Part shown: positions 2,613 through 25,300 of the stretch, one piece after another | How the letters are laid out: each line of letters begins with the position of its first letter | How positions within the stretch are numbered: position 1 is the stretch's first letter | NCBI GenBank assembly: GCA_001938485.1 | Contig: MQRK01255084.1 | Location: 1-64,000, forward strand | DNA from: Girardia tigrina | Taxonomy: Eukaryota | Reading direction: 5' to 3' | DNA length: 64,000 bases | Notes under the pieces: generated by a model | The model's input: the letters and a program-made list of their open reading frames with translations, nothing else | The model's database searches: none | What the model was told of the DNA's origin: nothing | Translations under genes and position numbers: made by a program

Positions 2613-5600
2613 GTAATATTCCGAATACCTCCTACCGAATTTGATCATCGAAAAAAAAACGATTAGAAAAATCTGAAGTTTTTAATCCGAAAAAACACAA
2701 ACTCGACGATGAAATGGAATTGGAGATGGACGAATCCGCCTACGTGCTCTATCACACACTCAAGGTCGAACATTCGTGTTTGAGCTTTGATATCGTGTCG
2801 GATAATTGCGGCAGCGGAGAGAGTCGCGCCGAAACGTTCCCGTACACGACATACGCCGTTACCGGCAGCCAGGCGTCGGCCGGACACAGCAACATTCTGA
2901 CGGTGATGAAAATGAGCAATTTGAACCAGTTGAAGAAGGTGGATGAGAAAATGACTATTATTATTGATAATTGTTGATTTTAGAAGGAAAATGACGACGA
3001 CGAGAGTGAGGACGACGAAGAGGAAAGTGAAGAAGAATTTCTGGACGAGAAGACCGAGTTGACCTATGTGAATGTGCTCCATAACGGTGCTGTGAATCGC
3101 GTCCGAAGCACGAATATCAACGGGAATACGATGGTCGCCTCTTGGTCTGATATGGGACAGGTGGGATTGGATGTTTTAGTGTGAAGATGGGTATCACCGG
3201 TGTGAGAGCATAAATCAATGGGAACATTTTAACAAATGACCGCGATTTTGACATTCTTTTTAAAGATATCTTTGTATCATTAAGTATCTTTTTGACTGTT
3301 CCTTGATCCCCCCTCTTTAGTAGAGTAAGGTAATTAAAAAATATTACACATATATATATATATATATATAAGCCCAAAGTTTCATCTGCGTAACGCTCAA
3401 AGTTTGCTGTGATCAATTTTTTTCTTGCTTTTACATGGCTTAATTTTTTAATCAATGAATAATAACTCCGGCTACTATGAAGTTACAAGCCAAAATAAGC
3501 AACGTCGGTATCTAACACATACATATAAAATATTTATTTTAGAATAATGATAATTTTAAAATCAAAACAGAAACTTTCAAAGAACCAAAATTCAGCTCTT
3601 TCATCTAGTAAAAAGTAATTACATATATATTAATGCAATGTGAATATCATTTTGGCTTAACAGAAAAAAAGCGAAAATAATGACATTGGGGTAGTTGTAA
3701 TCTGTTTTGGTAGGGAGACAGTTAAGTTGTTAATTTTATGAAAATTAAATTGATTACCTCTTTACAAGAGACTTTTTGCATCGAGGAACATATAATTATT
3801 TTCCGAAATACATCGGAAAACATATATATATATATATATATAAGTGAAAATTTGATTCTTCTGTTCCAATAATATTCATTAAAAAGTACGCTTTTTTAAA
3901 ATTTTGGAAAAAGATCAAAATTTCTAAAGATAAAATAGAAAAGTTAAAATTGGACAATTGCAAGAATAAAATAACAAAAAAATCAAAGAAAAAAGTACTT
4001 TTTTTTAAAAAAGTGCAATAATAATTTTTATTAATAATAATTAAAAAATACGTCTTTTAATTTTTTTTATTTTTGTTTAGTGTTATACTTCAAAATAAAA
4101 ATTCTGTCCAAGATGCAAAAAGTCTCTTGTAAAGAGGTAATAATTTTGACCTTCTTCTTTGTCTTATAAGGATAATTTTATGAGAATTTTTTTCTAATAT
4201 TTTATGGTAATAATTTTTAAAATTCAGATAATTAAAAAATAGTGACAAATGACTTATATATAGAAAAACACCCCATTTGTAAATAAAATTTATTTTTCAG
4301 GACAATTAATTTCCATGTTATAACTGTAATCGTCAGGTCTCAAGAAAATTAACCAGTAATTAAAATTGATAAACATATAATAACAGGCTTGTTCAACGTT
4401 TTTGTACTAAAGATCAATTTTTTTTAGATCAAACTACTTATAGATCTACCCATTTAAAAACAATTTAGATGTTTGATCAATACAACTATATTTTATTCAA
4501 GATAATTATCTATTAAAACAAAAACAACATAACAAACAATTTGAAATACATAACTAGTAATTTATTATAAAAAAATTTATGAACCTTGCCTTCATTTTTG
4601 TAAGGTTCGTACAAAGCAGTCGTACACGCACCTCTACGATGTGAGTATTGTATTTATGATTCTCTTGTTCATTTATACATAATAGTTACGATATATTCAA
4701 AATTTAATAAAACCTTCATTTTGACCATGAACTCGAACAAGCTATTGAAAATCATCTAGTATCAAATTTTTGTCGAATCGCCGAGTGAAGTGAGACAGTT
4801 GTATACATGCTGCGCCATTGCAGATGCATTATAATATTAATTGTCTTTTATTTATCAACCAATCACATTGCCCACGGTTCGTTCCATATAAATATTAATA
4901 GATTTATTAGTATACTGTCTAACCACGATTTGACGGAGGCCGATAGATCTTGATGTAATTTGTTTCTTTAGTTCATTTTTCTTCATCATTTACATTTCTT
5001 TTCCTTAACAAAAATTAAACTATTTTCCTCCATTTTTATTTAATTAATATCGAATCACAGAAAAAATTTCGTTAATTTACTTTTAAAAATCAGAATGGAC
5101 ATTTTTACAGATCGACTGAAATTCGTGTTGAAATCGACTGAAATTCGTGTTGCAATCGACTGGTTGGGTAGGCCTTCTATAGAAGATCCACTAATTTTAA
5201 ATTACGTTTTAAGCATTCCATATTCTGAAGGATTTTGTCAATTTAAACGTTCAATTTTAATGTGTCTAAATAATGCATTTAATTTCAAAAAAATAAAATC
5301 CAAAATGTATTTTGTAATAAATATCCAACTGTATTTAGATTATGTTCGGATCTCGCATATAAATTTACATGTAGTGGGATGAAATTCTACATGCATTAGA
5401 TAGACATCCCGTGATCTCTGTAGCAGAGCACAAGAACATAGTCGTAATGTGCGTGAAGTACTATAGCAGAACACAGAAAGGGTTGCAATTCGATTACAAA
5501 TATAAACGTAAATAATTTTAAAATTCTGTTTACTCGTCCAAATAAATATTTGGAGAGTGGAGTTCGGAGAGCACTATATATCAGATGTTTAGTTCTTAAA

Positions 5601-8600
5601 TTTATTTTCCACGAGACCTGACGATGACAGTCGAAATTAATTAAAAATTTTTTTTAATGTTAATTAATTTATTTCTAAAAAAATATTATTTTATTTTCAA
5701 AATAAATTATCTAATACTAAAATATTTATCAAGTATAAACAGAAAAATAAAAAAAATAATTTAAAATTAAAATAAAAAAAAATTTAGTAATAAATTGAAA
5801 TAAATTATTAAATTAAAAGTGAATTAAATTATTAAAATAAATTATTATTTTATTAATTGTTAAATAAAAAAAATAAAAACAAGAAGAAGAATAAACAATT
5901 CTTAAGTCAATCAAAGTTTATTAATTTCGACGGTTTAACCGTCATCGTCAGAACAAATGATTTTTCAAACGAAATTTACTTATATATTAGGTTGAAGAAT
6001 AAGTTCCCGCCGTTTTTTGAATTTTTAATCAATTGGTTGGCTGAATTTTTCGAGTCAAGACCGGGCAATTTCTACCAAAGAGACATTGAAAAAAAACTCG
6101 TTGAACGTTGGGAAGAAGTCGTGAACAATGGCGGAGATTATATTTGTAATTAATTTTTAGTAACTTTTTTGTTAAAAAATAAAATTTTAATTTTTCAAAA
6201 AAACGATGGGAACTTATTCCTCAACCCAATAGTGCAGTTAATGTTTATGTAATCAATACGTCATCAGTACATCATTTAAAAACTCAACAAAGTTGTAGAG
6301 AATGCAGTTTGAATGTTAATTTTAGGATCCAAAGGCCTTATATATAACGCTTCACACGTCACTCTTTCCCGATAATTCTTAAATTGAGTGCACAGAATTT
6401 TAAAGTGTTGTGAATTTAAATCTCCTTTACAATGTCTTCTATGTCCTGCAATGTTACTCCCACTTTCATCGCGACTGTGTTCCTGGATTCTCTTACAGAG
6501 ATGATGTGAAGTCTCTCCAATGTATGTGGCGTTAAACCCATTACATGTAAATTGGTAAATGAGATCCAAACACAATCCCAATGGCGTTGGAGATTTATTG
6601 CCGAACATGCTTTCAATTTTCTGAGTGCGGGATATTACTTTTAAACTTATTGCATTATATAACGCTTTCAAAATAGAATTTTTATATATTTTAAACCCCT
6701 CTAAGCCAATTTCTAAACTTTTGTCATTAGTGTTGCAAGATTGCTCTTGATCTTGAACATCTAAAATTTTAGTATTATTTTTTTTGTCAATTAATTTATC
6801 AATATTTTCCTTTGTTAATTTCTCCACTATCGATTTTGAATATCGTTATCATATAATAATTTGTTTAATTTATTAAGGCTGTCATTACATCCTTTATATG
6901 TAGATGAAAGAGCCCGTGAGCGAAAAATAAGACCTTTAATCATATTTCGACGATATTTGGATTCACATGAAACTGATCGGTGTTGTATACAACCCCGTGT
7001 CAGTTTTCTTTCTGTAAATTTTCGTCTCATGACGTCCGTTTTTTCTCTCAATTAATAAATCAAGAAAGGACAATTGTTTATCTTCTTCTTTCTCCATAGT
7101 TAACTTTACATTTGAATGCAAAGAATTCATATAATTTAAAATAGAGAAATATCTGTTTCATTTTGAAAAATCAAAAAAAATATCATCAACATTGCGTTTA
7201 TACGCTAGAGGTTTCTGGCCGACAAAAGAATCGATTTTATCTTCAATACTCGAAAGAAATATTGAACCAAAAGTGGGGACTAATGGTGAACCCATAGCTA
7301 CTCCATCAACTTGTTTGCACCAGTCATTATTGACCAAAAAATGCACATCTGACGTGGCAAAACTGTAAATGATGTACTCATTACGCTTTGATTGCACAAT
7401 CATTAACTGCACTATATAAGTAATTTTCGTTTGAAAAATCATTTTATTCTGACGATGACGGTTAAACCGACGAAATTAATAAACCTTAATTGACTTAAGA
7501 ATTTTTTGTTTGATAATTTGCCAATTTTATTTCAATTTATTCACAAAGAAGAATGTTTTTAGAAGTATATTGAAATCATTATTAAATATTTATTAATAAT
7601 TAAATATAAAAATTAAAAAATGTTTAAAAATTAAATTAAAATAATTTATTAAAAATATTTAAAATTATTTAAATTCTAATAAATTCGAAACAACTTATGA
7701 GAAGATAATTGACAAATTCGATTATTTGATATAGCAATAGTTCAATTTTTCCTTTTGATTTATACTCTCAAACCCATAGAAACTCATAACATAGTACACC
7801 TTTTTATTTTTTTTGGATGTCGGTGATGGATTGTGTTATTGGGATAGGTGCACGTGTGGGACATGAGAAACCAATTGTGGGCAGTCAATGATGCGGCTTA
7901 TATGGCCGAATATCACGCGCGTGGAGATCTTATCAAACCGGTCTACTCGGTGCGCAATCACAAAACTGAAGGATTTGCAATTGATTGGTCACGATGCAAG
8001 CCGGGACAACTGGCGTCTGGAGACAATGACGGCGCGATTTGTATCACTCTGCCACACGTAATTCTCTCTTTTATTAAAGCGATAATTATTATTATTATCA
8101 AATATTATTATTGTAACGATAATTATAATTGTCTGTAATAACCCTGATATTGTCTGTGTATTTCCTTACCAAGTTGAACTTATCATTATCAATAAATTGC
8201 CCGATAGACAATTGTTAAACTCGTGGTTATAATTGCAGGAACATGGATTTCAGACGATAGCCAAGAGCCTGTCTCATCACCAATCGTCAGTTGAGGATTT
8301 ACAGTGGTCACCAAATCAAGAAAATATTGTCATTAGCTGCTCGAGTGACCGAAGTATCGTCGTATGGGATATCCGCGATATGAAGCACCACGTCGATGTG
8401 GCAGATGCACACTCCTCGGACATCAATGTCATTTCTTGGTCACCAAACTGTGCATTCTCTCTTGTATCAGGTGGCGATGACGGTCTTGTGAAGGTGTGGG
8501 ATATGCGTATGTTCCGCTCACAGGGCTCAGGTGCCCCTATGCAGCAGTCGTACACGCACCTCTACGATGTGAGTATTGTATTTATGATTCTCTTGTTCAT

Positions 8601-11283
8601 TTATACATAATAGTTACGATATATTCAAAATTTAATAAAAATAATTAAAAATAAAATGTAATACGCGTTGTAGTTGAATCAATGAAACAAAGCAATTCTT
8701 ATTTTCAAAGTTTCAAAGTCCTTCAGAAAAATTTATATCACAAATAAATGATCTATTGTGTATCCAAATAACTTGTTAGTGAAAGTTTTCATTAATACAT
8801 ACAGTTAATAGATTGCCGCCAGATCTTAGTTTGGAGGATGTGCGAGAATGTGGAAATCTGGATAATAAATTTCGGCCTTATGCAGGACACTTTTGGATTG
8901 GTGCGTTCTAAAACATTCGCAATGTTTTTCTACTCCTGTTTCTCTCTTGGAACTATAGAGTTTCAGAAATGAGTGATACTATGGGCTATTCGATTGGACT
9001 GTCTTGGTCTTTGATACTGGTTTTTAATGTGACAGTCGCCATTCTGATCAATCCAACTTGCTCTCTGTGCTCTCTGCCTTGTATGTACTTTTTGATGAGC
9101 TTCCTGCAACAGCACCAACATGTGCCGCAAATGTGGAAAATTCCTTGAAACACCTATGCACATAATCAACGGATGCGACTACTCCCTTCCTTTCGGCACC
9201 ATCAAACACGACAAAATCAAAAATGACCTAGCCAAATTCATCGCAAAAAGTTCGGCCACAACACCGTAAGTGTCGAACACAAACACACAATGCCAAACGG
9301 GAAACTTTTCTTCTTCGACATATTCGTAGACATTGGTCGCTCAGCCTGGATCATCGAGGTTAAAAGCCCTTGGGACGCAGAAGTACAATTCAACAAAGCC
9401 TGCGAAACTTACCTTGACGCCCAACTTGACCTAATCCAAAATCACTGAAAATCAGAAGTCGTGATTTTCCCCTTTGTTGTGGGTAGCCTTGGCCGTTGGC
9501 ACCCTCGCCGCCATTGGATGTAATGATGACGGCATCGCAGCATACGCCACCAGAGCAGCTATACGAAACATCGAGATGTGTGCGAAACACTACAACAAGC
9601 ACCTTATTTACATCTCGGATGAAGAGATCATAAGAGATGGCACTGCCTAACAACAAAGCAGTCACCAGCACCTAGTTGACTCTTCTTGCAGAGCTCAACT
9701 CTTTGCCGTCAAAGGTAGATTTTAAAACGCTGAAACATGGAGCCTTTTCTGACTTTGTCGGAAACGTGCTTGCATTTAGTTTAAATCTCACCTAAGAAGT
9801 GTGTTTAAATTAAATTAACTTAGCTCCCGCCTTTTAGTAAGGATGGATTATCAACTGGGACACTGAACTCCTGAGTTGAATATCCTGAGTCCACCAACAG
9901 ACACAAGTGCCTCAAGGGCAACCAACAAACTATTAACTCCATGAGTCACTTAGCGGAGTCTGAGTGGCAGTGTTGAATAGAAATAATTTTCCAAATTCTT
10001 GCTACAAATTTAGACATTCTTCATTAAATTTCTTTAGTTTTAGTGGTCTCTGCATTAAAAACACCAGTCATACCACATTTAAATTGAGCGATCCAATCGT
10101 ATATTGTCATATTAGAGGGACAAATTATGCATAAATACATGTAATTCCTTTATAGTTTCCCTGCTGTTTATCTTTTGTAGTACGATAAATTTGAGTATAC
10201 TATAATATTTATATGTGATTTATCTGCGAGAATAAAGAAGCGTACAACAAGTACACAAAAAATAATTTTTCACTGTCTCTGTAGTTTCTATTTTAACCAT
10301 AAAACATTCAAAAATGTATTTTCTTTCTTATATAAAGTACTTTATGGTCCAACAGCGTATTTGAAATTAGTATATCAAGTACAGTAGTCGCTCCTAAATT
10401 GACCATCACCAAGAATATATATTAGCGTTCAATTTAAAGAGTATAACCGTATACACAGTGTTCAATTACCCAAAGCAGTATCAGTGGTAACAAAATAACG
10501 TCGATGAAGGATGCAAAAAATCTTCGAACCCGATTGCGATGCATGTATCAGTGATCCTCGACGGTACCGCAGAGACGAACCCATATATATGATTCCAATG
10601 GTGCTTCTCGGCTTTGGGTTACGAAATACAACTGATGTGGGGACATTTCGGTGTCCCTTTACTCATTATACGAAATGTGTTTGCACAGCTCTACAGAATA
10701 ATAGTACGAGGGATCATGACTGGTCCTTGCATCTAAAGCCGTGTGAGAAAAAGTCAGTAGGCTCTGTATTGCTTATTTATGGTTTCTACCCGATACAGAC
10801 TCACTACTCTGTACGCCAATGCTGGTACTGTAGTCTCTACAATAATCAGTTATCCGTTCATCTATGATTACAAACAAAATTTTGGTTGACTTGCGTTTTT
10901 ATGATTTACACAATTACATTAATTAATATTATCATTATTAATTTATTAAAAAATATGTATTGATTTGATTATAATCAATTTCTGCCACTCAGTATCACAA
11001 GGACTGTCCAATTACATCGATAGAATGGTGTCCTCACTCACAATACGTTTTCGCGTGCAGTAGCGAGGATGACCAGTTGACCTTGTGGGACATTAGCATG
11101 GAACAGGACGGTTGCGAAGAAGGTAGCGGAGCACAGGACACAGATGAATACCCAGTGCATCTGTTATTCAATCACATGGGTCAGAAAGAAATCAAGGAAC
11201 TCCACTGGCATCCGCAGATTCCTGGACTGCTGATGAGCACTGCACTCGATGGAATCAATATTTTTAAAACGATCAGTGTGTGA
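2519..11283 (+). CDS. GRWD1: Glutamate-rich WD repeat protein 1 (ribosome biogenesis / histone chaperone); join(2519..2612,2667..2938,2984..3160,7848..8057,8239..8568,10993..11283), 457 aa
   Basis: The spliced frame is continuous with GT-AG introns and matching phases. It has a CAF1C/H4-binding N-domain ([28 protein letters not shown]), an acidic tract, WD40 repeats ([40 protein letters not shown]) and the typical C-terminus [36 protein letters not shown]. Confidence 0.95.
2667..2938 (+). CDS. GRWD1: GRWD1 exon 2
   Basis: AG at 2665-2666; [26 protein letters not shown]; donor GTGGAT at 2939. Confidence 0.92.
2984..3160 (+). CDS. GRWD1: GRWD1 exon 3
   Basis: TTTTAG acceptor; acidic tract [35 protein letters not shown]; donor GTGGGA at 3161. 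Confidence 0.92.
3757..4137. mobile_element. MITE with perfect terminal inverted repeats (TIRs), TA-flanked
   Basis: ATTACCTCTTTACAAGAGACTTTTTGCATC (3753-3782) is the exact reverse complement of 4112-4141. TA lies at 3755-3756 and 4138-4139. Confidence 0.8.
4615..4712 (+). repeat. Exact 98-bp duplicate of the GRWD1 exon 5/intron 5 junction (8543-8640)
   Basis: Base-for-base identity from AGCAGTCGTACACGCACC to AATTTAATAAAA. Confidence 0.95.
5095..5645 (+). mobile_element. Penelope-like retroelement 3' fragment (decayed GIY-YIG region)
   Basis: [10 protein letters not shown] motif and frameshifted homology to the 6276-6827 ORF; ends in a hammerhead-like motif at 5618-5641. Confidence 0.7.
5916..5954 (-). 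ncRNA. Minimal type I hammerhead ribozyme motif (Penelope-associated)
   Basis: Minus strand reads GUU CUGACGA U GACGG-UUAAA-CCGUC GAAA UUAA UA AAC: catalytic boxes, 5-bp stem II, palindromic AUUAAU helix III and 3-bp stem I. Confidence 0.8.
5987..6229 (+). mobile_element. Internally deleted mariner element (MITE-like) with TA TSD
   Basis: TIRs TTAGGTTGAAGAATAAGTTCCC / GGGAACTTATTCCTCAACCCAA. Carries a mariner C-terminus ([28 protein letters not shown]). The empty site is visible in the other pseudo-LTR copy. Confidence 0.9.
7446..7484 (+). ncRNA. Hammerhead motif, degenerate copy in the inverted pseudo-LTR
   Basis: CTGACGA T GACGG TTAAA CCGAC GAAA TTAA TA AAC; one stem II and one stem I mismatch. 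Confidence 0.65.
7848..8057 (+). CDS. GRWD1: GRWD1 exon 4
   Basis: [22 protein letters not shown]; AG at 7846-7847, GT at 8058. Confidence 0.93.
8239..8568 (+). CDS. GRWD1: GRWD1 exon 5
   Basis: TGCAG acceptor; two WD40 repeats ([14 protein letters not shown]; [13 protein letters not shown]); donor GTGAGT at 8569. Confidence 0.94.
9110..9985 (+). mobile_element. 3' fragment of a restriction-like-endonuclease (RLE) non-LTR retrotransposon (R2/R4/NeSL type), decayed
   Basis: CCHC knuckle [21 protein letters not shown], then after a frameshift [28 protein letters not shown]. The 3' end is approximate. Confidence 0.8.
10000..10230 (-). mobile_element. mariner transposase N-terminal fragment
   Basis: [20 protein letters not shown] resembles the mariner HTH consensus TVYRWF..FK.G.TS..D. 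Confidence 0.55.
10382..10867 (+). mobile_element. Possible pogo/Tigger remnant
   Basis: TA|CAGTAG.. terminus; DWSLHLK..VLLIYG..H is weakly DDE_1-like. Confidence 0.35.
10993..11283 (+). CDS. GRWD1: GRWD1 exon 6 (last)
   Basis: CTCAG acceptor; [26 protein letters not shown] then TGA; AATAAA at 11302-11307. Confidence 0.94.
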
Positions 11284-11416
11284 TGAAATTTGTGTTGAAT
11301 CAATAAAATATTTATCCTAATTCAATTTCTTTGTTCATTAATATGAGAATTTTTCATGAAACATAATTTGATGTTCTCTAAAAATCTCACGTTTTCATAA
11401 TTTCTATGGTTTTAAT

Positions 11417-12080
11417 TAGGGGTGTGTCGGCTTTGATTTTTTGAAATCCGGCCGGAGCCGGAGCTGGATTTGTGATAACTTTTAGTAAGTAGCTACTTAT
11501 GGTAAATTAAAGAAAATTTTTAAGAATAGCTGGAAATTGTACCTATTACAAAAATGAATTGCAAATAATAAATAACAACTAATAATTATTTGAAACATTT
11601 TATTAAATTTTTTTATTAAGTCAATATTTTACTTCAAAAAAATAGTCTTGTAGCATTTCCTGTGATCACTGATTAGGTCACCTACCACACTAAATAATCG
11701 TCCAGGTGGTACATTAGTCGGAGGTGATCCCAGGTACACTCGAGCTACTTTAGCTAAACTAGGAAATCTCTATTATATTTCCACCATTTCAGTGTATCTT
11801 CTGTCCGTGAGACCACATGTTCAAACAGGTACTAGCATAATTCTGACTTGCAGATATGTGCTGTTTCTCGGTGGGTGTTTCTGGACGATCCCAAAGTATG
11901 GAGCTCTACCCGTGATTTCTTAGTGGGTGGTTCAAGAGACTCCGTTGATGTGGTGTTAGGTGAGCAAATCAACGTAGAACTTGTTGAATGAACATTCTCA
12001 ATAGTATTAAAGGACAGCAGTACACGGGAATTTACAGTCGTCATATTTGACAATATACAATATACGATTTTGAAATTCAC
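11417..12080 (-). mobile_element. hAT element 3' fragment (C-terminal dimerisation domain and terminus)
   Basis: DTLKWWK / FPSLAKVARVYLGSPPTNVP.GRLFS.VGDLISDHR across a frameshift; TAGGGGTGTG terminus with CCGGAG subterminal repeats. Confidence 0.75.
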
Positions 12081-12399
12081 TTGCTATTCTTTGAAATACA
12101 ATATTGTTTATTGAAAAAAAATTAATCGATGTACCTGAATTGTTTATTTCTTTATTAACGTTGACTAAATTTAAGAAATACAGTAGAATTTGCACATTAG
12201 CAAGTCAGAAAAAGTCAGAAAAAACTTGTTATTAGACGAACTTGCTATTAGACCAATTTACACTTTGAAATTCGCATTCTCAAAATACCGTTTCAGTTAA
12301 CCAATTTAATTGTTTAATAACGTTTAATAATAAAAAGGCTTTAAGAACTGGTGGAAATTAAATTCTCAAGTTCATGAACACAAAGTTAGCTCATCGCAT

Positions 12400-14582
12400 G
12401 TCTAGACATTTTTCAAGTGGAAGGAACTAGAGATCCGGCTCGCTGAAAGAAAGGCAATAAACACAGTAGAGGAAGAATTAATTGAGAAAGAGACTAAGAC
12501 ATGGCGATAAATTCTGGCTAGATTACTGAGACCAATGGGTCACCAGGAAGACATCGAAGAAGACGTAGACCAGGAAAATAGAAAATTTTTTTGAATTTGT
12601 TCATTTATTGGCCAAGTATAACAATATTGTCACTTCATATTTGTTACTAGAGACTCAAAATGAATTTGTGAGCATTTTAGCAGAGCAGGTGGGAAAGAAA
12701 ATAATTGACTGTCAAGCAGAGCAAGTTTTTTTGCATAATGTTTGACAGTACTTCAGATATATCTCACAAGGACCAGTTGAGCGAGGTGTTACGCTCAGAT
12801 AAAAATGAAGTGAAAGTGGGGAGTCGTTTGTCTGCTTCATTGAGACAAAAAGAAAAAGTACAAAGAAAATTTCTGAATTGATATTAAGATAACGAGAAAA
12901 AGACGAGATTCAAATTGATAATTACCGTGACCAGGCATACGTCAATGCTGCTGTTATGGCTGCCCATCGATCGGGCGTCCAGAAGCGCACCTCCAAAATT
13001 AACTCGAAAGCTCTATTTGTGTCATGCTCAAATCACTCCCTGAATTTGACTGGCATACATGCAGCTTCTGTTGTGATTCACTCTATTACATGTTTTGACA
13101 CATTGGACCGGTCATTCTCTTTCATTTCACATCAACGCATCGCTGGGATGTCTTGATTTATGAAACTGATCTAAGTATCAAGTGAGTTGTGGAAACTAGA
13201 TGGAGCACTCGAGCAGATGTTGTAAATGTGTTGGTGAGCAAATTATCAAAAGTCGTGACTGCTCTGGAGAAGCTCACCAAAGAAGGAGAAGATATGACGA
13301 TAAGATCAGGTGAATCTTTAATTCTATAATCAGTACTGTCATTTCCGTTTCTGTTGCTTCTGGGCCTTTAGAATTCTGTTCTACTAGAGGTCAATCATGC
13401 CCAGAAGTAACTTCACACAAAAGGGCTGGATCTGCTAGTTCTATCAAGCTCATAGAAAAGAGAGATTTCATTTTTAAGAATAAAGAAAAAGTGGGTGGAC
13501 AGTATAATAGATGAATCCAAGAAGTTCTTCTTTGAAATTGAGATAAACATGGAAAATTAAATTTGTAAAAAGAAAAGAATGGATGGCGAAAGATTGACTG
13601 ATGATGTAGCGATGAAATTTGATGTTGAGTTGAAACGGGAAATGCTGTCTCTCGTAGATAGGTTGATTGAGGAAATATATTCAAGATTTCAAGAAGTTCA
13701 TGGTCTTGCAAACCAGGGCTGCGGAGTCGGAATAAAATTGCCTGACTCCGACTCCGACTCAAACTTCTATATTTTTTAAAATGTCCGACTGAGATTCTTT
13801 TTTAGGTCAATTTATATTATTTGCTATTATTTTGATCGGAGTCGAGTTTCACGACTCTAACTTCCACTCAACCTTCGACTCCGCAGCCCTGTTGCAAACA
13901 AATATGCTGTCATTGCACCATGAAATCTCTTTGGTGATAATTATTATTGTTAACTTGGAGAAATAATGATGAGGTGGAGAAAAAGAAATTCTTAGCCGAA
14001 AGAAGAAGACTGCATTATATTGTCCGAGCTTCAGGAAAAGACAGAATCAACGGACCTTTAGAACTTATGAGCTACATACAGAGATATCACATTGGGGACT
14101 CCATTCCTAATATTGTGATCCTGCTGCTTATTTTTTTACCCAGGTTATTAGCGTTGTCAGTTGCGAACGCTCATTTTCCAAACTAAAACTCATCAAGAAC
14201 TATCTCCGATCTATAATTAGCCAATCAAGATTTACAGAATTGGCAGACCTCTCCTTTGAGAGAGAGCATGTTGCTGAAATGAATTTTGATACTGTTATCA
14301 ATAAATTTTCAGAAATGAAAGAGCGAAAAGTCTGCTTGTAAATTGTAAATTTTAAAATGACTTCTTTACTTGGTAATTTTTAGTATAAGAATGAAACTAT
14401 TGCAAGAAAAATATGAAATTAAAGTACGGATTTTGAGAAAAGCAATAACAGAACTCTATTTAATTTTTAACGACGATACTAATTGAGGGTTTCGAATAAT
14501 GGGTTAAAGTTTAGGATACGGGTTAAGGGGGCGGCAAATTTTAGAACCGCCCCGGGCGCCAATAACAGTTGTTACGCCACTG
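12400..14582 (+). mobile_element. Decayed hAT transposon (ZMYM1/Tip100-like)
   Basis: IMFDSTSDISHKDQL, QAY.NAAVM..GVQ..ALFVSCSNHSLNL, ETRWS and SCERSFSKLKLIKNYLRS, with many stops. The right terminus GTTACGCCACTG ends at 14582; the left end is unclear. Confidence 0.88.
13714..13891. mobile_element. hAT-type MITE nested in the hAT transposase
   Basis: 16-bp TIR CAGGGCTGCGGAGTCG / CGACTCCGCAGCCCTG; 8-bp TSD TTGCAAAC (13706-13713, 13892-13899); internal GACTCC repeats. Confidence 0.95.
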
Positions 14583-17500
14583 TCTCAATATCCATGACAA
14601 TGAATTTCAGTTGATTTTGGGAGTTCAAAGTGTCAGATACTGTCAATAGAAATATTTATGGTGGTTCATGAGTATTCTCGCATTTCCAGATTCGTCCTCT
14701 GAGGAAACCATATGTTGTTTAAAAATGTTGTAATTTTAATCAATATCTGAAAATCAAAGATTAAATTCATTCATCAAATATACTCATGGTATTTTAACTG
14801 ACGGGCATGGATATTAGTTATGTAGTTTTAATCTATAAGTGACATATGTTGAATCAGCAAGTCGTTAAAATATTTATTTAATCTCAATTAATCACATGGT
14901 CGGTTCTTTCTCATTCTATTAAATATTTATCGATTTATTCGTGTCGTATATATCTCTATCGATCTCCGTTCTCAGCAACGATGATCTCTCCTGAAACCAG
15001 ATTGGCTTTCCCTAATTGATTCGGTAGTGGATTCATTTTCACTCGCAGGAATTTCACTTGACCTCTCTTCCCGTTCGATGTGATATCTAAGTCAACTTCA
15101 TCGTGAGTTAATCTCAATATTTCTGGGATTAGAAATTTGACGACAATATGATTATCACTAAGTGGTATCATCCGCAAGAAGAGTACGGACTGTGAAGACA
15201 ACGGCTAACCGGGGTTAAGATGCTAAAATAACCTTACTCTCAATTAATGAAATATATTATGAAATAATGATATCAATATCAATAAGATAATAATTTATGA
15301 AATACATATTAAAACACCAATGAAGTTTAAATTTTGAAATTTATCGTTGTCGAATTATTACTGGATCCTGAGGAAGGTTTGCTACTCAAATTGGTTTTCG
15401 TTCCTCAAATATTCTATCGGGAATTTATGTCGTCAAACGTACTTTCGAAAATTTGATTGATGGGTGTCTCACGAACGCACGTATCTGCAAATCGTTGGTT
15501 GAAAAATTGTTCTCGTAAGCTGCGATTATGAATTGAGTTGTTCTGTGTCGCTGTCAACTAAAGTTGTCTTGTCTAATATTTTTTGCGAATAATTCTGTTC
15601 GCAAATTTTGTGTCTCTGTTGTGCGTTTCCTTGTTGACCAGGTCGCTGTTTATATAGCAGCCTTTTTCTGGATGTAGTATGTATTTGGGTAGTAATGTCA
15701 TCGTGGAAACTCCTGATTGGTTCCTACCAATGATTCTCAGTTTAAATTTGTCGAGACGTGTGGTGCATCTATGTCATGCGGACCTCAACAAAGAACAATG
15801 ATCGCGCCGACTCGCGATTATTCATAGTGAATAATCACGCGACGTTTATTTTAGGATTGTTGATTGATTCACTGTAAGTTCTTTATTAATTTTTATTATT
15901 TTAATTAACGTTTCGTTATATTTCAAGGCTTTATATTTTTTTGCCGGGCGCTTCGGACTAGACTTCTACTAGACTTCGGACTAGCGCTTCTGGACTAGAC
16001 TACAATTATGGATAGCTGGCAACAAGGGCTTTCTGGAGAGGTCCGGTTGCTCGATTTTTTCCCTCGGATGAGTCTTGACGTGACTTTATGTATTTTAACT
16101 CATTCATGTGATGTTTTAGGCTCTGGAAGGTATTAATGATGTTCTGCTGGATTGCGAGAAGGCACAAGACGACACCTACATGAATCCGGGCCATGTATTT
16201 ATGTGATGATCCTTTAATATATGTATCCTTCACTATTGTCTTTTCTTTATGTCATATGTTTTTGTATCATTTGTTAGTGTTGATAAATGTGAAAGTAAAA
16301 TATTACTATTAATAAATTATTAATAATAACTGAAAGAGAATAATTAAATAACAAATACGCAAATAGTTTTTTTAATACTCATTAATTTACAATAAAATAC
16401 AACTGGATTCACCAACAATAAAATTTATGAAACTTAATCAAAAGCTGTGACTTAAAAAGGAATCAACAATGTTGGTTAATTCTTGGTAATGACAGTTGAT
16501 AATATAAATTACTGAGTTTAAAAATATAATAAGGAATTAATGATTTTAAGAATATTGATTTTAATTAAATAATATAAATAATGAAGGAGAACTGTGATCA
16601 CTTGAAGGAGCAAGATAATTATCAAATGTAGATGAGTCCTACTTCTTAAATTGACTGTTCTCAGTTCCTGTTCGTTCGGCTTTTCGTCTCTTTCGCCAAT
16701 TGAATTTTTCGGTCATATATCTCTGTGAGGGATAGTTTCGTGTCTTGGATTCGTTTATTTGAGAATTAAAATTCGTTCTTGTTAAATCTTAATTGAATAT
16801 TGAAAATTTTATGATTTTCACAATTAAAATTTTACCTTAGTTGAATATTGAAACTTTTATGATTTTTGACGTAATTCCATATTTATTTTATATAATATCT
16901 TAAATCCTGTGTGGTCACTTTGTTTATGTTATCGATCACTATTGTTTATCTCAATTGATGAGAATTAACTTTAGATCGACCTCTAAATAATAGGGTGACA
17001 TAACTTTAAATTTTAACTTTAATTGTACTTTTACAATTAATTAAAATTGAGCTTTTAAATAACCTTCTCTTTTCTTTTAATTAATTATTCTTCAATTATT
17101 CTTTCTCCTTCTTTTATAAATAATTATATACAAAAATAAATATAATAAATTAATTAAATTAACACTTTTCTTTATACATAAAATATATTTTTTTATAACA
17201 AAACCTGTAAATTATTTTTCCACATAATCCAATATATTACTGGGTTTCCGACCGTAACATAATAAAAATTTATCACACTATTGTCTTTTGTTAAAATGGT
17301 TTTAAGATATTTTTTTAATTATTTACATGAATTTAATAAAATTTTGAATAATTATAATATTTTTGTCCGCTATATTTTGTCCTGATATTCTGGAAAAAAG
17401 AAATGCATTTAACTCTAATGAATTTTATGACTTTTCCATCAAGATCATTAGAGATATCTTCTCTTCATGACCTGTTTCTGGATTTTAAAAGCCGATCAAC

Positions 17501-20500
17501 ATTAGAAGACCTAATTATGCAAAGTTACATATAACAATTAGTTCATCAACAATTACCCGAGGGGGTGGTACCAAGAAAACGTACTTTCTTTAAAAAATTA
17601 GTTCGCATAAGCAATGATGATCCATTAATAGAAGATGTGGTTAATAAAGAAATATTATCTTCTCAAGTTGTCAGACTGCTTTGTTGGAAGAAACAACCCG
17701 TTACAATCTTGCAATTTATTATAAAAATCAGATATATCAACCAGAGTTAGAGTGGTGATCAACAGGATAAACGCGAAGGAAGGGGTCATCAAATCTTAAA
17801 GTTTTTGATCCTGATTTTTGAAAAAGTGAGGGTAAATGTAGTATTAAAATTAGTTTAATTGCATGAGTTAGATGTAAACAGCGTCATAAATTTTGTTTAT
17901 TAATGAATATTGTTCCTCCCACTAAATCTTTTGTTATTATTAGGGAAATATTTTGCACCAATTGGAACGAAGCGTTTAAAATGTGTTGCAGATATTCATT
18001 TTTTCAATCTGCAATTTTATCAAAATATTTCAAGGATATGTCCCAACAGTGAGAGGAGATGACAAAATTAATAATTTTAATTCAGTTCAAGTTCTGTTGC
18101 TCTAAAAGCGATTATCATATATCGGTTTTTGATTTTGTCGATATGGAATCTGATAGCAATGATACATGGATACAAGTGATGATATTGGTGGGTTTTCATG
18201 AAACAAAAAATGTATGATTTCTGATTCTCTGAATAATTTGTATCAATATACTTCTTCCTTCTGAAATGACGATTGTGAGGGATAATTCGGAATGTTGTAA
18301 GTTTGTTGGTTGTATGCTGTTTAGATTTTTGACTCTCCTACTCAGATGGTATTGATATGTTTATTGATTGATTATTTGAATCTAATGATATTAATTTTAA
18401 GTATTAATTAATTAAAGTTTTATAATTATGAATTTTAATAATATTTTTACTAAACGATTTTAACTTATTAAATTTAATATATTTTAAAAATTAATGTTCA
18501 TTTAATAAATTACCTAATGCCTTTTTATTCAATAAAATTCAAGAAATTAAAAATTAATTTTAAAAATTTCTCATTCATTGTTTTTTTTAGATTTGAATAT
18601 ATAAACAAAAACTATATCAATCAAAGAAAGATGCTCTCTGAAAATTGTTGTGAATTATCTGTTTGTGTTGTCAATAAATGTTTGCATTCAAATTGTGATG
18701 CTGTTAATAACGATAAATTAAAAAATTACGACTTTTTTGATACAAATATAAATGTATTATTTTAAAGAAAAAAATAATTTTCCTAAATTTTTCTTCGGTG
18801 TGATTTAAAGCTTAATTTATACTTCGTTTTTAGAAATTATTAAAAGTTTTTTTGTTTTTAATTTGAATTTCAATTACATTTAAAAGCTAATTTAATTCAT
18901 TTTCAGCTATTTTAAGTTTAGTTTCATGATTTTTTATTTCATTTTATTTTGTTTCATTCTACCTTATTCAAGTGTTTCATTTTCAGGTAATTTTCATTAA
19001 ACTAATAAGTTTTGATTTCTTATTCTATCGTAAAAATAATTTTGTTTCATTTTTCATTGTTTAGATATTTTCTGGATTTACATTGCCCTATTCCCGTTTC
19101 ATGTGTATCCTACGTGGTACGCCCAATCAATCGTGAGACTAATATAGAAATAATAATAGTAACAAGATTACTACAGACATATTTAAACTGCAATATATAT
19201 AGGTTAAGAAAATTTTATAAATTTTTTTGTTAATTACAATTATAAAGTAAGTCAACTGATCACAAAAAAAATTCTCTGTACTAATATTTTTTATTTTTGT
19301 GGTAGGGAATGATCAATTGACCTAATTTATTTAACTGTTAATAACTAGATTTTAGTTAACGGTATATATATAAAAAAATACAGGAAACCAATTTTAGTGT
19401 TCTTATAACAAGAATAAAAACAACTTTTAAAATTAAAGTATTAATATAACAAATTATTTCAAAAGATACCTGTAATTTAACTATAACAATCTAATAACAT
19501 CAACCGTAAATTATTAAATGATCTCGCAACTTCGATATATTTTCTTATAGCAAATAACGTAGGTTATTTAAATTTTTTTAATGGAAATATATTCTTTGTT
19601 GCTACATCTTCTTTTATTATCGAGAATAAGGAGATTCCTTCGTCTTTCGTAATTTTAAATTAAAGACGACTATTCGAATAAAAATCTTGTTTATAGTCTT
19701 TGTCACCCAAGATAGTTAAATAATAAAATAAAATATATTGTTGCTAGGAATTAAAATTTCTGGCACGGATATTCGTACGATAATTCTTCCTTGACAAATA
19801 TAATTATTAATGTCTTTTTAAATTAATATTGTTAGGCAATATTTAATTTATTGATTTATTTTTGAAATTAGAAATCGGGTATAATGTATGAAGGAAATAT
19901 TGAGACAATCAAACTATAATGAAACATTTGACGTGATTTTATTACGGCGTAGTGAAACGTTTATTAGGAATTGATAATCGTAACTCGATTGAATGAAGAA
20001 AACACATCGGAACACGAAACTCGACAACCGTAAAAAATTCACTCATCGAATCCTGATAACGTTAAAGAAACGACTATCGGCCTAAATGAGATTAAAAATA
20101 ATTGACACTAAATTAATACGAAACTGTCTATTGAACACGTTTGGATTCCTCAAATCTCTCATGTGTACGAATGATTTCCGTGAAATAACGAATGTATTTG
20201 TAAATAAATGTTTAAAATTCTCATTACTTTAAAAGTTTTTTTAATAAAATATGAATTTACTTAAAAAAACAAATAATAAAAATAAAATGACACAACTTTC
20301 CACGTACAAAAAAATAAAATCTACTTCACACCACTTAAAACTATACAAAAAATAAATAAATAATATCTAACAGCATAGACAGACCAAAAGACAAATAATC
20401 TCTTGCCTCTGAACTCTTTGTATAAAAAAAACCCAAAATCCGTTTCCTTTTACGTTAAAAAAATATGTAAAAAAAAGAAATTGTGTCTCTATGGTTATTA

Positions 20501-20536
20501 CAATTGTTAAACTCAATTTTTGCGAATATTCGAAAA

Positions 20537-21050
20537 ATGGAACTGGAAACTATTCAATACCGTAGTGTTATTCGAGTTCTCTTTCTGAAAGGAATAAAAA
20601 TAGAGAAAAGGCTCTTTCTGTACTGAAAGCTGCTTACCAACAAGAGTACCTACCAACAATAACAATTTCTCTTTAATTCAATTACTTTCAGAGTAGTAAA
20701 ACCTCCGTGATGGACGAAGAAAGATCTAGAAGACCCTCGGAAATTGATAAAAAATAATGCAAAAACTACAGATAATTGTCCAAATCAAGAGAGTTCACAG
20801 TCTGTTTAAATGTGAGAAAAGACACTCTGCATACTCTCCTCACTGAAAGTGGAATTCGAAAACCTTTTACCCTTGTTGTGCCACACTTTTTAACTATAAA
20901 ATGCTACAACGTCATTTGGAATGATGCTTGGAAAACCTGCAGAAATAAGGATCAATTTTGGTGACCGTTTCATTGATAATATCACCATTGTGGATGAGAC
21001 ACCATTGTCCCTTTATGTCTCCGAATTCAAGAGTCACAAGAATCGAAACT
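20537..21050 (+). mobile_element. Decayed mariner transposase
   Basis: MELETIQYRSVIRVLFLKG, DEERSRRP and ITIVDET motifs with frameshifts. Confidence 0.7.
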
Positions 21051-22232
21051 GCCTAGAGTAAGCAGCTCATTTTATAACCTAAAATATAAAGAATTTGTTT
21101 TTTATGTTAGTTTAATAGGTAGATAAATTCAATTGATAATAAAAACATGGTGAGGAAATTAGAGGCGAAGGCTTACATCTGAAGGAAGCAGCCACTGAGA
21201 GAGGCCAGCATATTTATACTCTCAACAGTCAATGTTTACTTTTGAAGAAATTCGAAACCTATGAGAAAATATTTTATAATATAATATTTCTTAAAGTTAC
21301 TGCTATATTTTTTTGAAATGTTCTATGGATTTTACCTGATTAAAACTGCCTATCTTCTTTAGAAGACGGTTTTAATGGTATTACATCGCATAAAACGACT
21401 GGTATTCAATTTTAACCAAATATATCCGTGATTGAGAGAATCGGATAGTCAGTCAAAAATACCTGACTAAATTAAACTACTGATATTGTGTATATCAATT
21501 AATTTATTTATTTTAGGTACACAATTTAACTGTTTTTATAATAAAAAATATTCTTTTATCCTCGGACTTTCGATTAGAAAAATTTTTAGTTATAATAATA
21601 ATTAAGTTAATAAATAATAAATAAAATATCAAAATTTGATTACTTTAGACTCATATTTCGAAACTAGTATAACTGCGGTTCTCAAATGTCTTCAACATAT
21701 TACCTATCATAAACGCACACAAAAATAAAATATATTTTTTGATATCCATTTCTATTACTTTTTTTTGCAATTTCGACAGTTCTATTTCAAATGAATAGTC
21801 ATAAAAATAATTAACGATTAGTCAATATATTAGAGTAAAGTATTACTTTTTAGATACAAAAATTCAACCAGTTGAAAACCATTACTGACAAATTAATTTT
21901 TTTATATAATTACCAAATTTAAAACTTTCTTTTCTTAAGAAACAAAATCCAAATTTTTATTCCGTATTTCAATTCAAACAATCACATAGTAACATGTTTA
22001 CATCGTTTGTTTTACCGAATCAATGACGAAACAATTTACAAATCATGCCAATCATTATTTGAATAATTTACAATATTCAAAAGTCGCATGAAAATTGAAA
22101 TTTTCTCACACGGAATATTTTTATCGTCATTGATCGAATTGTTTTTTCGTGAAAATCATCAATAAACGAATTATTAATGCAGATGAAAATGAAAATCGGT
22201 TTTTGATTGTTTTTTTTCGGTTTCAGTTTTAG

Positions 22233-22310
22233 ATGGAGGCAATCGCTCTTCATGACTTTGTGCCGACAGATCCCGATGATCTCGGGTTCAGTAAAGATGC
22301 GGTGATTAAT
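22233..22310 (+). CDS. GRB2: GRB2 coding exon 1
   Basis: MEAIALHDFVPTDPDDLGFSKDAVIN, 26 codons; donor GTAGGG. Confidence 0.9.
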
Positions 22311-25300
22311 GTAGGGAATTAGGGAATGGGTTTTGTCGGCTGGACTTTATCGATCGCTCCCTTTAAATAATTTGGCGCCACTTAAAATCGATAATTTGGG
22401 GAAATATAATTCAGACATCCGTGGAATCAGGAAATCAATATATATATATATATATATATATATTTATTTGAAAAATAAATTTGTTAAAGCTTTTAAAGTA
22501 ATTGTGCATTTTTCGGAAATTCTTCTTCCATCATCAGCGATTATATTTGTTAGTTACTTTTTTTAACGTTACTTTTGTGTAAAGGTATTTTAAATGGGAA
22601 AAATTATTTATTTAATTTAAGATATTATACAATAATGGCAAATTTTTTTCTATTTTAAATGAAGATTTTAAGATGTGAAACGGCTTTATTTTGTCTATTT
22701 TGAATGTTTATTAATCGATTGTAGTGTCGTATAATGTAATGATTAAAAAAACTGCTACTCACAGTGTGAATCAAAGTGCTTCTGTAAAATTGAAGATTCA
22801 TCTTTTGAAACAGACGACATTCTATTTTTACAGTGTAACCAAAGATCAAGAACCGTACTTGATCGACTCGATTGTGAGTGCTCAATAATCCGGGTTTTGA
22901 GATGACGATTTGTTTTCCAATATACGAGTTTTTACACCAGTGACAATCAAATTTATAATCCATACTAGCTTGCAATCCACAAATCGTTTTCGATTTATTC
23001 GAGAGTAATCTTTGAACTTTGGATGCCTTTTAAACCAGATTGACACTACCAACATTCTTGCAAAAATTTGCAAATAGATCAAAACATTAAGGTTAAATTG
23101 GACAAATTATGTACACAAACACGGGTTGGGAAAGAATTAAATAAAGAAAACATTGAAGGATGCAAACAAATAATCAAAATACCATATTCTGAAGGATTTA
23201 AAGCATTCAAGAAAAGTTTTTGCAAGAATATAAGTAGTGTCAAAGTAGCTTCAATAACATCCAAAGTTCAAAGCTTCCTCTTGAATAAATCGAAAACGAT
23301 TTGTGGATTGCAATCTAATCTGGTTTATAAATTTGATTGTCACGGGTGTAAAACCTCGCACAGTGGGGAGAAAAATCGTTATCTCAAAACCCGGATTTGT
23401 GAGCACTCGCAAATGAGTCGATCGAGTAAGTTTCTTGATCATTTGTTACATTGTCAAAATAGAATCTCCTCTATTTCAAAGGATTTATCGTATTTTCGAA
23501 TCAAACAATATATTTTTTGACGGAAAATTTATTTTATTTGAATTGAACTTGGTTAATTCATTAACGAAACTTCAAAAATCAATGATGACTTGTCTGAACA
23601 TTAATTTAAGATTGACCCAGCACGAAATCCGCTGCGTCTTTGCTAGTACCATCCTGTCTTGAATTTGAATTGAATACCGATTGAACAACCATAACTTTAT
23701 AATTATTATTTTTGTATAGGTTTTTAATTACAGGGTTATTAATAATTATATCCACTTTATTAATAATTATATCCACTTTATTAATAATTATATCCACTTT
23801 ATTAATATTTATATCCAATTCAATAGTTAATTAATAACTTTATGTATTTGAATTAAGGAAATCATTAAAAAATTCATCCCAATATGGAAAATAATAACAA
23901 CATCAACAATGTCACAGTTTCTGATCAAAGATTAAGGGCTAGGAAGAAAAGAATCCCATTAACTTTAGAAAAGCTAAAACTAATTGAAACCATGGATGAA
24001 AAGGGCGACTCAGTATCAATCATATCTGAGCGATTAAACTTATCTAAATCAACTGTATATAAAAAGTTAGAAAAAATTTATTTATGCAAGGAGCAAGGTA
24101 AAAACGTATCTGGGTTGATAAAGAAACCTGGCGCAAAGGTAATGGAAGCCAATGAAAAGAGTATGATTTTGTCCGATATAGTTCAGGAAGTTAATGAATT
24201 GACACAGCAAGGAATGGTTTCCAAACTGAAAGAAAGTGGCATCTTTGTGTCTCAGGCGACTGTATCAAACTGCCTCAAAAAATTAGATATCACCAGAAAA
24301 CGTTTAAAGTTACGTTCAAGTGTTGTCTTAAATGATGAACTGATACACAAAAGAAAGATTTATGCAAGAGAGTTTCTAAGAGATATGATTAACAAGCGCT
24401 TTTTTTTCTTGGATGAAACAGGCTTTAATCTCCATATCTTTAAGTCATATGGATATTCTCCTAATAACTTTGATGCGATAAGACATGTTCCTTCAAACCG
24501 TGGAAGAAATCTTTCTTTGTTAGCAATAATTTCAGATGTCAAAGTGATGAATTACAAGTTGTTGAGTGGTTCATACAATACCGATTTTTTTTAGCTTTTC
24601 TTAATGTTTGTTTTTTACAAAATATTTTTGAGCCAAATTCGATTTTAATCATGGACAATGTGAAGTTTCACCATTCTGATAGTGTAAAGAGGTTTTTACA
24701 AGAAAGGAACATTAATTTTAAATATCTTCCTGCATATAGCCCTTAATTTCCAGAATTTATATTTTCATATGCACGAATTTGTCAGAAAAGCATACAATGG
24801 AGAGCAATTTTAAATAAAATCTAACATGACTTTTTTGTTTCTATTTTAATATACTTGAAAAATTTTGTATGGTATATCGTACATAAGAGACTTTTACTGA
24901 AAACTAGTGAAAAATATTAGAAGTATGGCTTAAAAGCATATATTTTTGAAACAAAAATGAATTAATACTATATATCTAACAATATTATAATTTTTAATAA
25001 AATGGATATAATTATTAATAGAGTGGATATAATTATTAATAACCCTGTAATTACAACAATTATTTAATTAATTGACAGGCATATATTAATTATAGTTTAT
25101 AAATTAGATCAAAATATTTAGGGAAAGGGTGCGAAGTAAAATCCAGCTGATTTGTCATATTGACATTAGTGATAGTAATGATAACGAGTCTCATTTCTGT
25201 CAGATAATCGATATGGACACTGATCCGAATTGGTACAGGGCCGAGTACAAACAGAAGTGCGGATTGGTGCCCTTCAATTACATTCAGTTGCTGCCCAATC

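Follow-up and report, generated by a model that had tools for sequence, protein, structure and literature searches.

Why do Penelope-like elements (PLEs) end in a ribozyme, and what does the additional base in the core of that ribozyme represent? The question is raised by a 64,000-nucleotide (nt) stretch of the Girardia tigrina genome (GenBank assembly GCA_001938485.1, contig MQRK01255084.1, positions 1 to 64,000 of the forward strand; hereafter, the window), in which a first-pass annotation made from the letters alone had noticed hammerhead motifs sharing an extra U (CUGANGA-U) and had proposed that they mark Penelope 3′ ends and define a variant core. The function of the hammerhead in endonuclease-bearing (EN+) PLEs was described as still unclear in the relevant sections of Craig et al. 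(2021; PMC8557442). Based on the analysis presented here, it is highly probable that the motifs represent the minimal type I hammerhead already known from PLE pseudo-long terminal repeats (pseudo-LTRs), here ending four truncated insertions, that the extra U is the U of the start codon in most families, and that the predicted cut would sever this codon from its reading frame.

All six annotated motifs, at four named sites and as a pair near 39 kb, were found in the window, with cores at 5618-5636(+), 5951-5925(-), 7449-7475(+), 22537-22511(-), 38996-38970(-), and 39143-39169(+), and the extra U is present in every one of them. There is also a seventh, decayed copy at 4336-4310(-), in which stem II is broken. 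Stem II, said to stay paired throughout, does so in four of the six: the 5618 copy has lost 8 nt and retains 7 nt of stem-loop II (3 bp and a 1-nt loop) in place of the usual 15 nt found in the other five, and stem II of the 7449 copy is interrupted by one A-A mismatch. Likewise, helix III is the A/U palindrome that had been described in five of the copies; the hexamer of the 22537 copy is not palindromic, and the palindrome of its family is ACAUGU. The 5951 motif and the 39-kb pair are the only window copies that still look complete, and the window copies are passive remnants, mostly decayed. A loose core pattern matched the window 15 times, compared with 4.08 matches expected, and none of 100 shuffles scored as high; a frequency no higher than that in shuffled AT-rich sequence had been named beforehand as grounds for abandoning the idea.

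The genome was surveyed with pattern counts, a fixed-structure pair count, and profile searches. The strict pattern gave 25,534 matches in 1.43 Gb compared with 38 for a reversed-pattern control (~670-fold), in counts that include duplicates, some contigs appearing to have been assembled twice. The extra base is U in 24,891 of these matches (97.5%) and another base in 643, and a pattern of equal stem length lacking the base gave 159 matches (control, 93). Shorter stem-loops add 8,860 matches (control, 472) and longer ones 11,962 (control, 422); among the first 100 listed of each set, the extra base is mostly U. At least 12 stem types occur genome-wide and four hammerhead families are represented within the window, in keeping with the earlier view that the structure is conserved across at least three Penelope families.

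Structural features were scored in 73 motifs at 69 loci, which come from small contigs at the head of the match list. The core columns CUGANGA...GAAA...UH are invariant across eight families, and all but one of the 73 copies have U, A, or C at H17 (U in 49). Helix II is closed by G10.1-C11.1 and has all five pairs formed in 59/73 copies, being broken in the window copies at 5618, 7449, and 4336. Helix I, in a type I topology, has 2-5 contiguous bp in 67/73 copies and just 2-3 bp in 46/73, whilst helix III is a palindromic hexamer in 67/73. When eight family representatives were compared, 10 of 12 named pairs were altered on both sides, with 92.7% of cells able to pair, and the covariation score lay beyond all 500 shuffles and every slid control; the representatives were picked by hand and the sequences are related, so this result is not a probability. 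Compensatory changes affect four of five pairs in helix II and all four in helix I (78% paired). The comparison supports the conclusion that a hammerhead structure has been kept across Penelope families. Chance matches in AT-rich DNA, of which the loose pattern yields about four per window, have a vanishingly small probability of explaining the motif, being refuted by the ~670-fold excess over the control, the covariation, and the fixed spacing to the stop of the open reading frame (ORF) described below. An Rfam scan of the window returned no hammerhead match at E values up to 5, presumably because the curated models do not cover the minimal form. Separately, most families (e.g. at loci L077, L002, L110, and L124) have a splice acceptor-like UUAG/UCAG site immediately 5′ of helix I, 1-4 nt ahead of C3. 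The intron of the D. virilis Penelope ends at the matching position; no spliced joint was seen in the contigs here.

The variant core that the first-pass annotation had inferred is already in the literature. The 2014 consensus of Cervera and De la Pena (PMC4209133) includes a base between positions 9 and 10.1, a long helix II, the G10.1-C11.1 pair, and a palindromic helix III; the extra base appears in the CUGANGAH consensus of their Fig. S3, and it is U in 12 of the 56 examples shown there. Their main text places minimal hammerheads in PLE pseudo-LTRs and notes pairs on opposite strands. The metazoan motif thus described shares with ours the type I layout, the CUGANGA core, the short helix I, thousands of copies, and opposite-strand pairs 100-700 bp apart. 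It differs in that U is nearly fixed in G. tigrina (97.5%), and in that there are tens of thousands of copies here, compared with up to ~9,000 reported there.

The suggestion that the motif marks Penelope 3′ ends was borne out in part. A sense endonuclease end lies upstream of 20 of the 41 motifs that have at least 150 nt of upstream sequence, at 65-82 nt in the 18 cases where the distance was measurable, compared with a sense endonuclease match in 1 of 71 downstream flanks used as a control. Conversely, among the best 30 loci with reverse transcriptase (RT) and endonuclease, a motif in sense follows the ORF in 21, at a distance of 76-86 nt from the ORF end in 14 of these. By these alignments the motif sits at a fixed spacing, ~78 nt, after the ORF stop. 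It is not confined to 3′ ends, however, for the same 30 loci include eight with an inverted and one with a direct motif at the 5′ end. Judging from these positions, the motif belongs to the pseudo-LTR and recurs in the 5′ copies of that repeat, whether direct or inverted, overlapping the start of the ORF there.

The elements themselves look like ordinary EN+ PLEs of the Penelope/Poseidon type. Protein P0002, to which genome copies are up to 96% identical, matches RVT_1 (E 2e-12) and, below the cut-off, GIY-YIG (E 0.002); the GIY-YIG match of the window ORF is above the Pfam cut-off. Translations read by eye, using definitions given in Craig et al. (2021; PMC8557442), have a DKG motif before the RT, two Cys inside GIY-YIG, and no zinc-finger linker. 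With the EN+ PLEs described there they have in common the single ORF with DKG motif, RT, and C-terminal GIY-YIG, as well as the 5′ truncation, inverted 5′ copy, and 30-40 bp tail, all observed here, and a hammerhead near the 3′ end. We saw no structural difference from that description, the elements here having been assigned by features rather than by an RT tree.

What, then, is the extra U? Together, A9, the extra U, and G10.1 spell AUG, and the frame that follows is open and conserved between families. Among 50 loci examined (one of them fetched twice), 14 have an upstream motif and run on into a downstream unit, and in every one of these the core AUG shares its frame with the N-terminal domain. 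A combined pattern of motif plus conserved N-terminal motif, designed from two families and with duplicates kept, found 68 sites (control, 0), in 47 of which the core AUG is in frame with the N-terminal motif (p=1.8e-9); 30 fetched sites span seven families, including three of the window's four. Open frames that begin at the core AUG run to the DKG motif for 316 codons in L093 (with a run of Ns) and 338 codons in L113, and this AUG is usually preceded, at a distance of 3-18 codons, by a stop in the same frame. An eighth family, with a 14-nt stem-loop, has a 181-codon frame from the core AUG in one copy. In eight families, the core AUG is on this evidence the first in-frame AUG of the RT-endonuclease ORF. 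In our literature search, outside which Luense et al. (2017) fell, no publication accounted for the extra U by a start codon or reported a shift of the start into helix III. Codons and start sites are absent from the main text of PMC4209133, and the portion of bioRxiv 10.64898/2026.07.22.740005 covered by the search does not mention a start-codon role for the extra U. Ten of the 56 metazoan examples in Fig. S3 of PMC4209133 also read A-U-G at that place (hand tally). Among the papers found, an overlap of start codon and hammerhead is stated only in Frangieh et al. (2024; PMC11167929), for one lizard element.

Several observations weigh against this reading of the extra U. Twenty-one of the 41 motifs have no sense endonuclease match upstream, and 21 of the 68 sites are out of frame, several through indels and a few as chance matches. 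Among the copies examined, no single ORF was intact from AUG to stop. A spliced upstream exon could supply another start; in four contig runs aligned to L101 there was no GT-AG joint near the motif, contigs being a weak test. The RNA data from all 21 runs are assembled contigs and can show neither RNA ends nor strand. Moreover, some families keep the U where the core AUG does not start the ORF. In a clade whose helix III palindrome is ACAUGU, translation from the core AUG meets a stop after 13-17 codons, and none of the eight copies that have this AUG carries it in frame. In two short-stem families, the stop comes after 2 or 6 codons. Finally, the family of the 22537 copy yielded no 5′-intact copy among 40 matches.

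In these families the start appears to lie elsewhere within the ribozyme. In the ACAUGU clade, which is 30-55% identical to the query protein, an AUG inside the helix III palindrome is in frame in 7 of 9 copies, and opens a 264-codon frame in L307 that matches the profile of the other families (E 3e-15). The 22537 family has 94 strict copies, with a protein match in 3 of 30 loci; in 15 of the 30, the alignment to the window copy extends at least 130 nt upstream. The family shares the ACAUGU palindrome with its sister clade (19 of its 24 distinct copies retain the AUG) and has a peptide similar to that of the clade, from which we infer that its start, too, lies in helix III. The core AUG was ruled out as the ORF start in this family, its frame stopping at codon 11 in 15 of 30 loci. 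For the short-stem families, an AUG in the 3′ strand of helix II is a candidate start; both copies that extend 5′ are frameshifted. In all nine resolved families, as read from their frames, the start is inside the ribozyme and 5′ of the predicted cut, and cleavage would therefore remove the start codon.

We had considered that the U is fixed solely as part of the start codon, and dropped this idea given its retention in the ACAUGU clade and the short-stem families: the U is not explained by initiation alone. It is a real possibility, if short of probable, that the U is kept for faster catalysis, or is simply ancestral in the lineage, and that its use in a start codon is secondary. In the plus-strand hammerhead of the viroid CChMVd, an insertion occupies the equal core position after A9, and U there is kinetically favourable, with trans-cleavage 3-4-fold faster, as reviewed in PMC3705267; persistence of the U where the core AUG frame closes after 2-17 codons agrees with such a role. 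The viroid RNA differs from the elements here, being a non-coding circular plant RNA whose ribozyme is monomeric with a full helix III. On the other side, in eight families here the U belongs to the first in-frame AUG, and A predominates at this position in the PLE hammerheads of metazoans (hand tally of the 56 rows in Fig. S3 of PMC4209133: A 30, U 12, C 11, G 1, and none 2), so that U is not required for the motif. A catalytic advantage and a start-codon role can both hold.

Insertion 3′ ends were mapped in 105 copies, of which 101 aligned to a family reference and 99 passed an identity filter, with positions numbered from the core AUG. The predicted cut lies 27 nt from the A of that AUG. 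One copy ends by +32, five at +33-50, 41 at +51-80, 51 at +81-125, and one beyond, with modes at +60-79 and +90-109 giving two end clusters ~35 nt apart; AT-rich flanks blur these ends by some bases. As 98 of 99 insertions run beyond the cut site, the template was uncut or re-joined RNA, a result that agrees with the lizard element of Frangieh et al. (2024). Contig depth on L101 drops ~100-fold across the stretch where insertions end. An apparent end cluster at +29-30 was an artefact of a subfamily indel and was absent with more references. A second hairpin at +50 to +95 from the core AUG, within the first codons (e.g. L077:1663-1796 and L124:589-722), has arms UGGC/GCCA in several families and GAUGAU/AUCAUC in another. 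It lies near both end clusters, is the predicted fold in 8 of 13 copies, and is a possible signal for an internal start of reverse transcription.

Re-joined RNA is what a processing device would supply: cuts at two successive motifs would free a unit-length RNA that is circularised, rebuilding the AUG-ORF junction and templating tandem insertions. Such a circular-processing model was proposed in PMC4209133, a circle or multimer would likewise give insertions running past the cut site, and direct tandem junctions are present (L093, L100, and L101). We nevertheless hold it to be rather unlikely. In the lizard element, ribozyme mutants left in vitro insertion unchanged and no RNA reads started or ended at the cut site, as stated in the text of PMC11167929, and direct 5′ repeats are rare here (1 of the 30 top ORF loci, vs. 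inverted repeats in 8).

We favour instead a sequence of events in which the start codon and the cut oppose one another. A tandem unit would be transcribed from the upstream pseudo-LTR, and the uncut RNA would serve as both mRNA and template. Reverse transcription would begin within the first ~100 nt of the ORF, such that every 3′ end receives a whole ribozyme plus the first codons. Cutting would need two motifs paired via the 6-nt palindrome, at a site 27 nt from the core AUG, and cleavage by this dimer is probably slow and protein-aided. As the cut would yield uncapped RNA without a start codon, its most likely effect is to retire or process the message rather than to serve as a step of insertion.

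It is in our estimation quite unlikely that cleavage in vivo is rare or absent and that the motif has been preserved as a structure surrounding the start codon that binds protein or controls translation. The minimal PLE hammerheads had low in vitro activity in the assays given in PMC4209133, helix I is often just 2-3 bp and H17 mostly U (see above), and the active hammerhead dimer was not among the lowest-energy dimer folds predicted for the window copies. Yet the core letters are invariant across eight families while all three helices covary, fixed amino acids cannot account for the untranslated CUGANG part, and the lizard motif cleaves in the presence of protein, as PMC11167929 states in its text.

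That lizard element, PAc, a Poseidon of Anolis carolinensis, is among the closest known systems. Its geometry is as here, with the start codon overlapping the ribozyme, and from the wording of PMC11167929 its AUG appears to be A9-U-G10.1; the extra base and a shifted start are not discussed in the text on PAc. It differs in ending at +111-118, compared with ~+65 and ~+100 for the elements here.

Four truncated Penelope-like insertions (A-D) were resolved in the window by tblastn and by blastn against genome copies. Element A comprises a 5′-truncated GIY-YIG endonuclease remnant and 3′ untranslated region (UTR) at 5178-5599(+) (tblastn 5185-5445, E 2e-7; blastn 78-79% to L042 and L051) and the broken hammerhead at 5618-5642(+). 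Family similarity at the latter ends at about the predicted cut site, either because cleaved RNA was inserted in this rare case or because sequence was deleted afterwards. A decayed inverted pseudo-LTR of the same family, holding the 4336-4310 core, lies at 4213-4347(-) (blastn 77-80% to L042, L134, and L120). Element B, on the minus strand, has a 5′-truncated RT and GIY-YIG ORF remnant at 6229-7370 (Pfam PF01541, E 1.1e-5; 91% to L049) that matches residues 172-544 of P0002 (tblastn, E 9e-111), and a 3′ pseudo-LTR with an intact-looking hammerhead at 5890-5986, ending ~56 nt after the AUG. The landmarks of this motif are C3 at 5951, the core AUG at 5945-5943, the palindrome at 5925-5920, and the predicted cut after 5919. 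A 242-bp insertion with inverted termini at 5987-6228, presumably mariner-like and seen as a gap in the blastn alignments to L049 and L044, lies in the 3′ UTR of element B. At its 5′ end is an inverted pseudo-LTR, 7366-7546(+), with the mismatched hammerhead at 7449-7475.

Element C is a decayed endonuclease remnant and 3′ UTR at 22555-23064(-) (tblastn, E 4e-6; blastn 75-79% to L210 and L214), followed by a pseudo-LTR of the old ACAUGU family at 22453-22554(-), its palindrome mutated; an inverted duplicate of the endonuclease region, recognised by sequence comparison, lies at 23074-23484(+). Element D is a stub at 39017-39242(+) that retains the last ~15 endonuclease codons, a stop at 39065-39067, 76 nt 5′ of the motif at 39143, and a tail; its inverted copy, found by blastn, is at 38924-39015(-), with the 38996 motif. 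The 5618, 5951, and 22537 motifs follow GIY-YIG remnants in sense, as first described, with the 242-bp insertion between 5951 and its ORF; 39143 likewise follows an endonuclease end, and 7449 and 38996 are inverted copies at element 5′ ends. Further Penelope-related fragments without an intact motif lie at 49722-50039, 60230-60548, and 1753-1897.

Besides these elements and the 242-bp insertion, DNA-transposon remnants in the window include a Tc1-like HTH/DDE frame at 23869-24594(+) and a DDE_1 frame at 51602-51979(-). Exons of a WD40 host gene, which we take to be GRWD1/Rrb1-like, lie at 8233-8610 and 10975-11283(+). A 98-bp exact duplicate (4615-4712 and 8543-8640) contains the end of a WD40 exon and the start of the following intron; it sits between element A and its inverted repeat, and may be a templated insertion or an assembly artefact. 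Elsewhere in the genome, a Penelope ORF is joined in frame to a coding sequence for ribosomal protein L9 (uL6) that has no introns (L064:952-1482, G000:C45977; L063, C27166; L065/L090, C169216). The L9 part has 62% GC and 92% GC at third positions, compared with 30% at third positions in the Penelope part. The fused ORF is internally deleted, with the N-terminal domain and endonuclease and no RT, and occurs in at least two different flanks; it is a candidate for capture of a foreign mRNA, or a chimeric assembly.

The motif itself is an ordinary, published Penelope feature; what these observations add is a lead, open to testing, as to what the hammerhead does. Tentatively, and with more doubt than confidence, we suggest that the position of the start codon, within the ribozyme and 5′ of the cut, is purposeful: eight families have it at A9-U-G10.1, one clade in helix III, and two more probably in helix II, and none past the cut. 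Protein-assisted cleavage would then act as a feedback switch, with the Penelope protein decapitating its own mRNA. A start that lies inside the ribozyme and upstream of the cut, and that shifts between families, predicts that cleavage and translation are mutually exclusive, and the families of this genome are natural variants in which one can be tested against the other. If true, such a switch would supply the still-missing function of PLE hammerheads.

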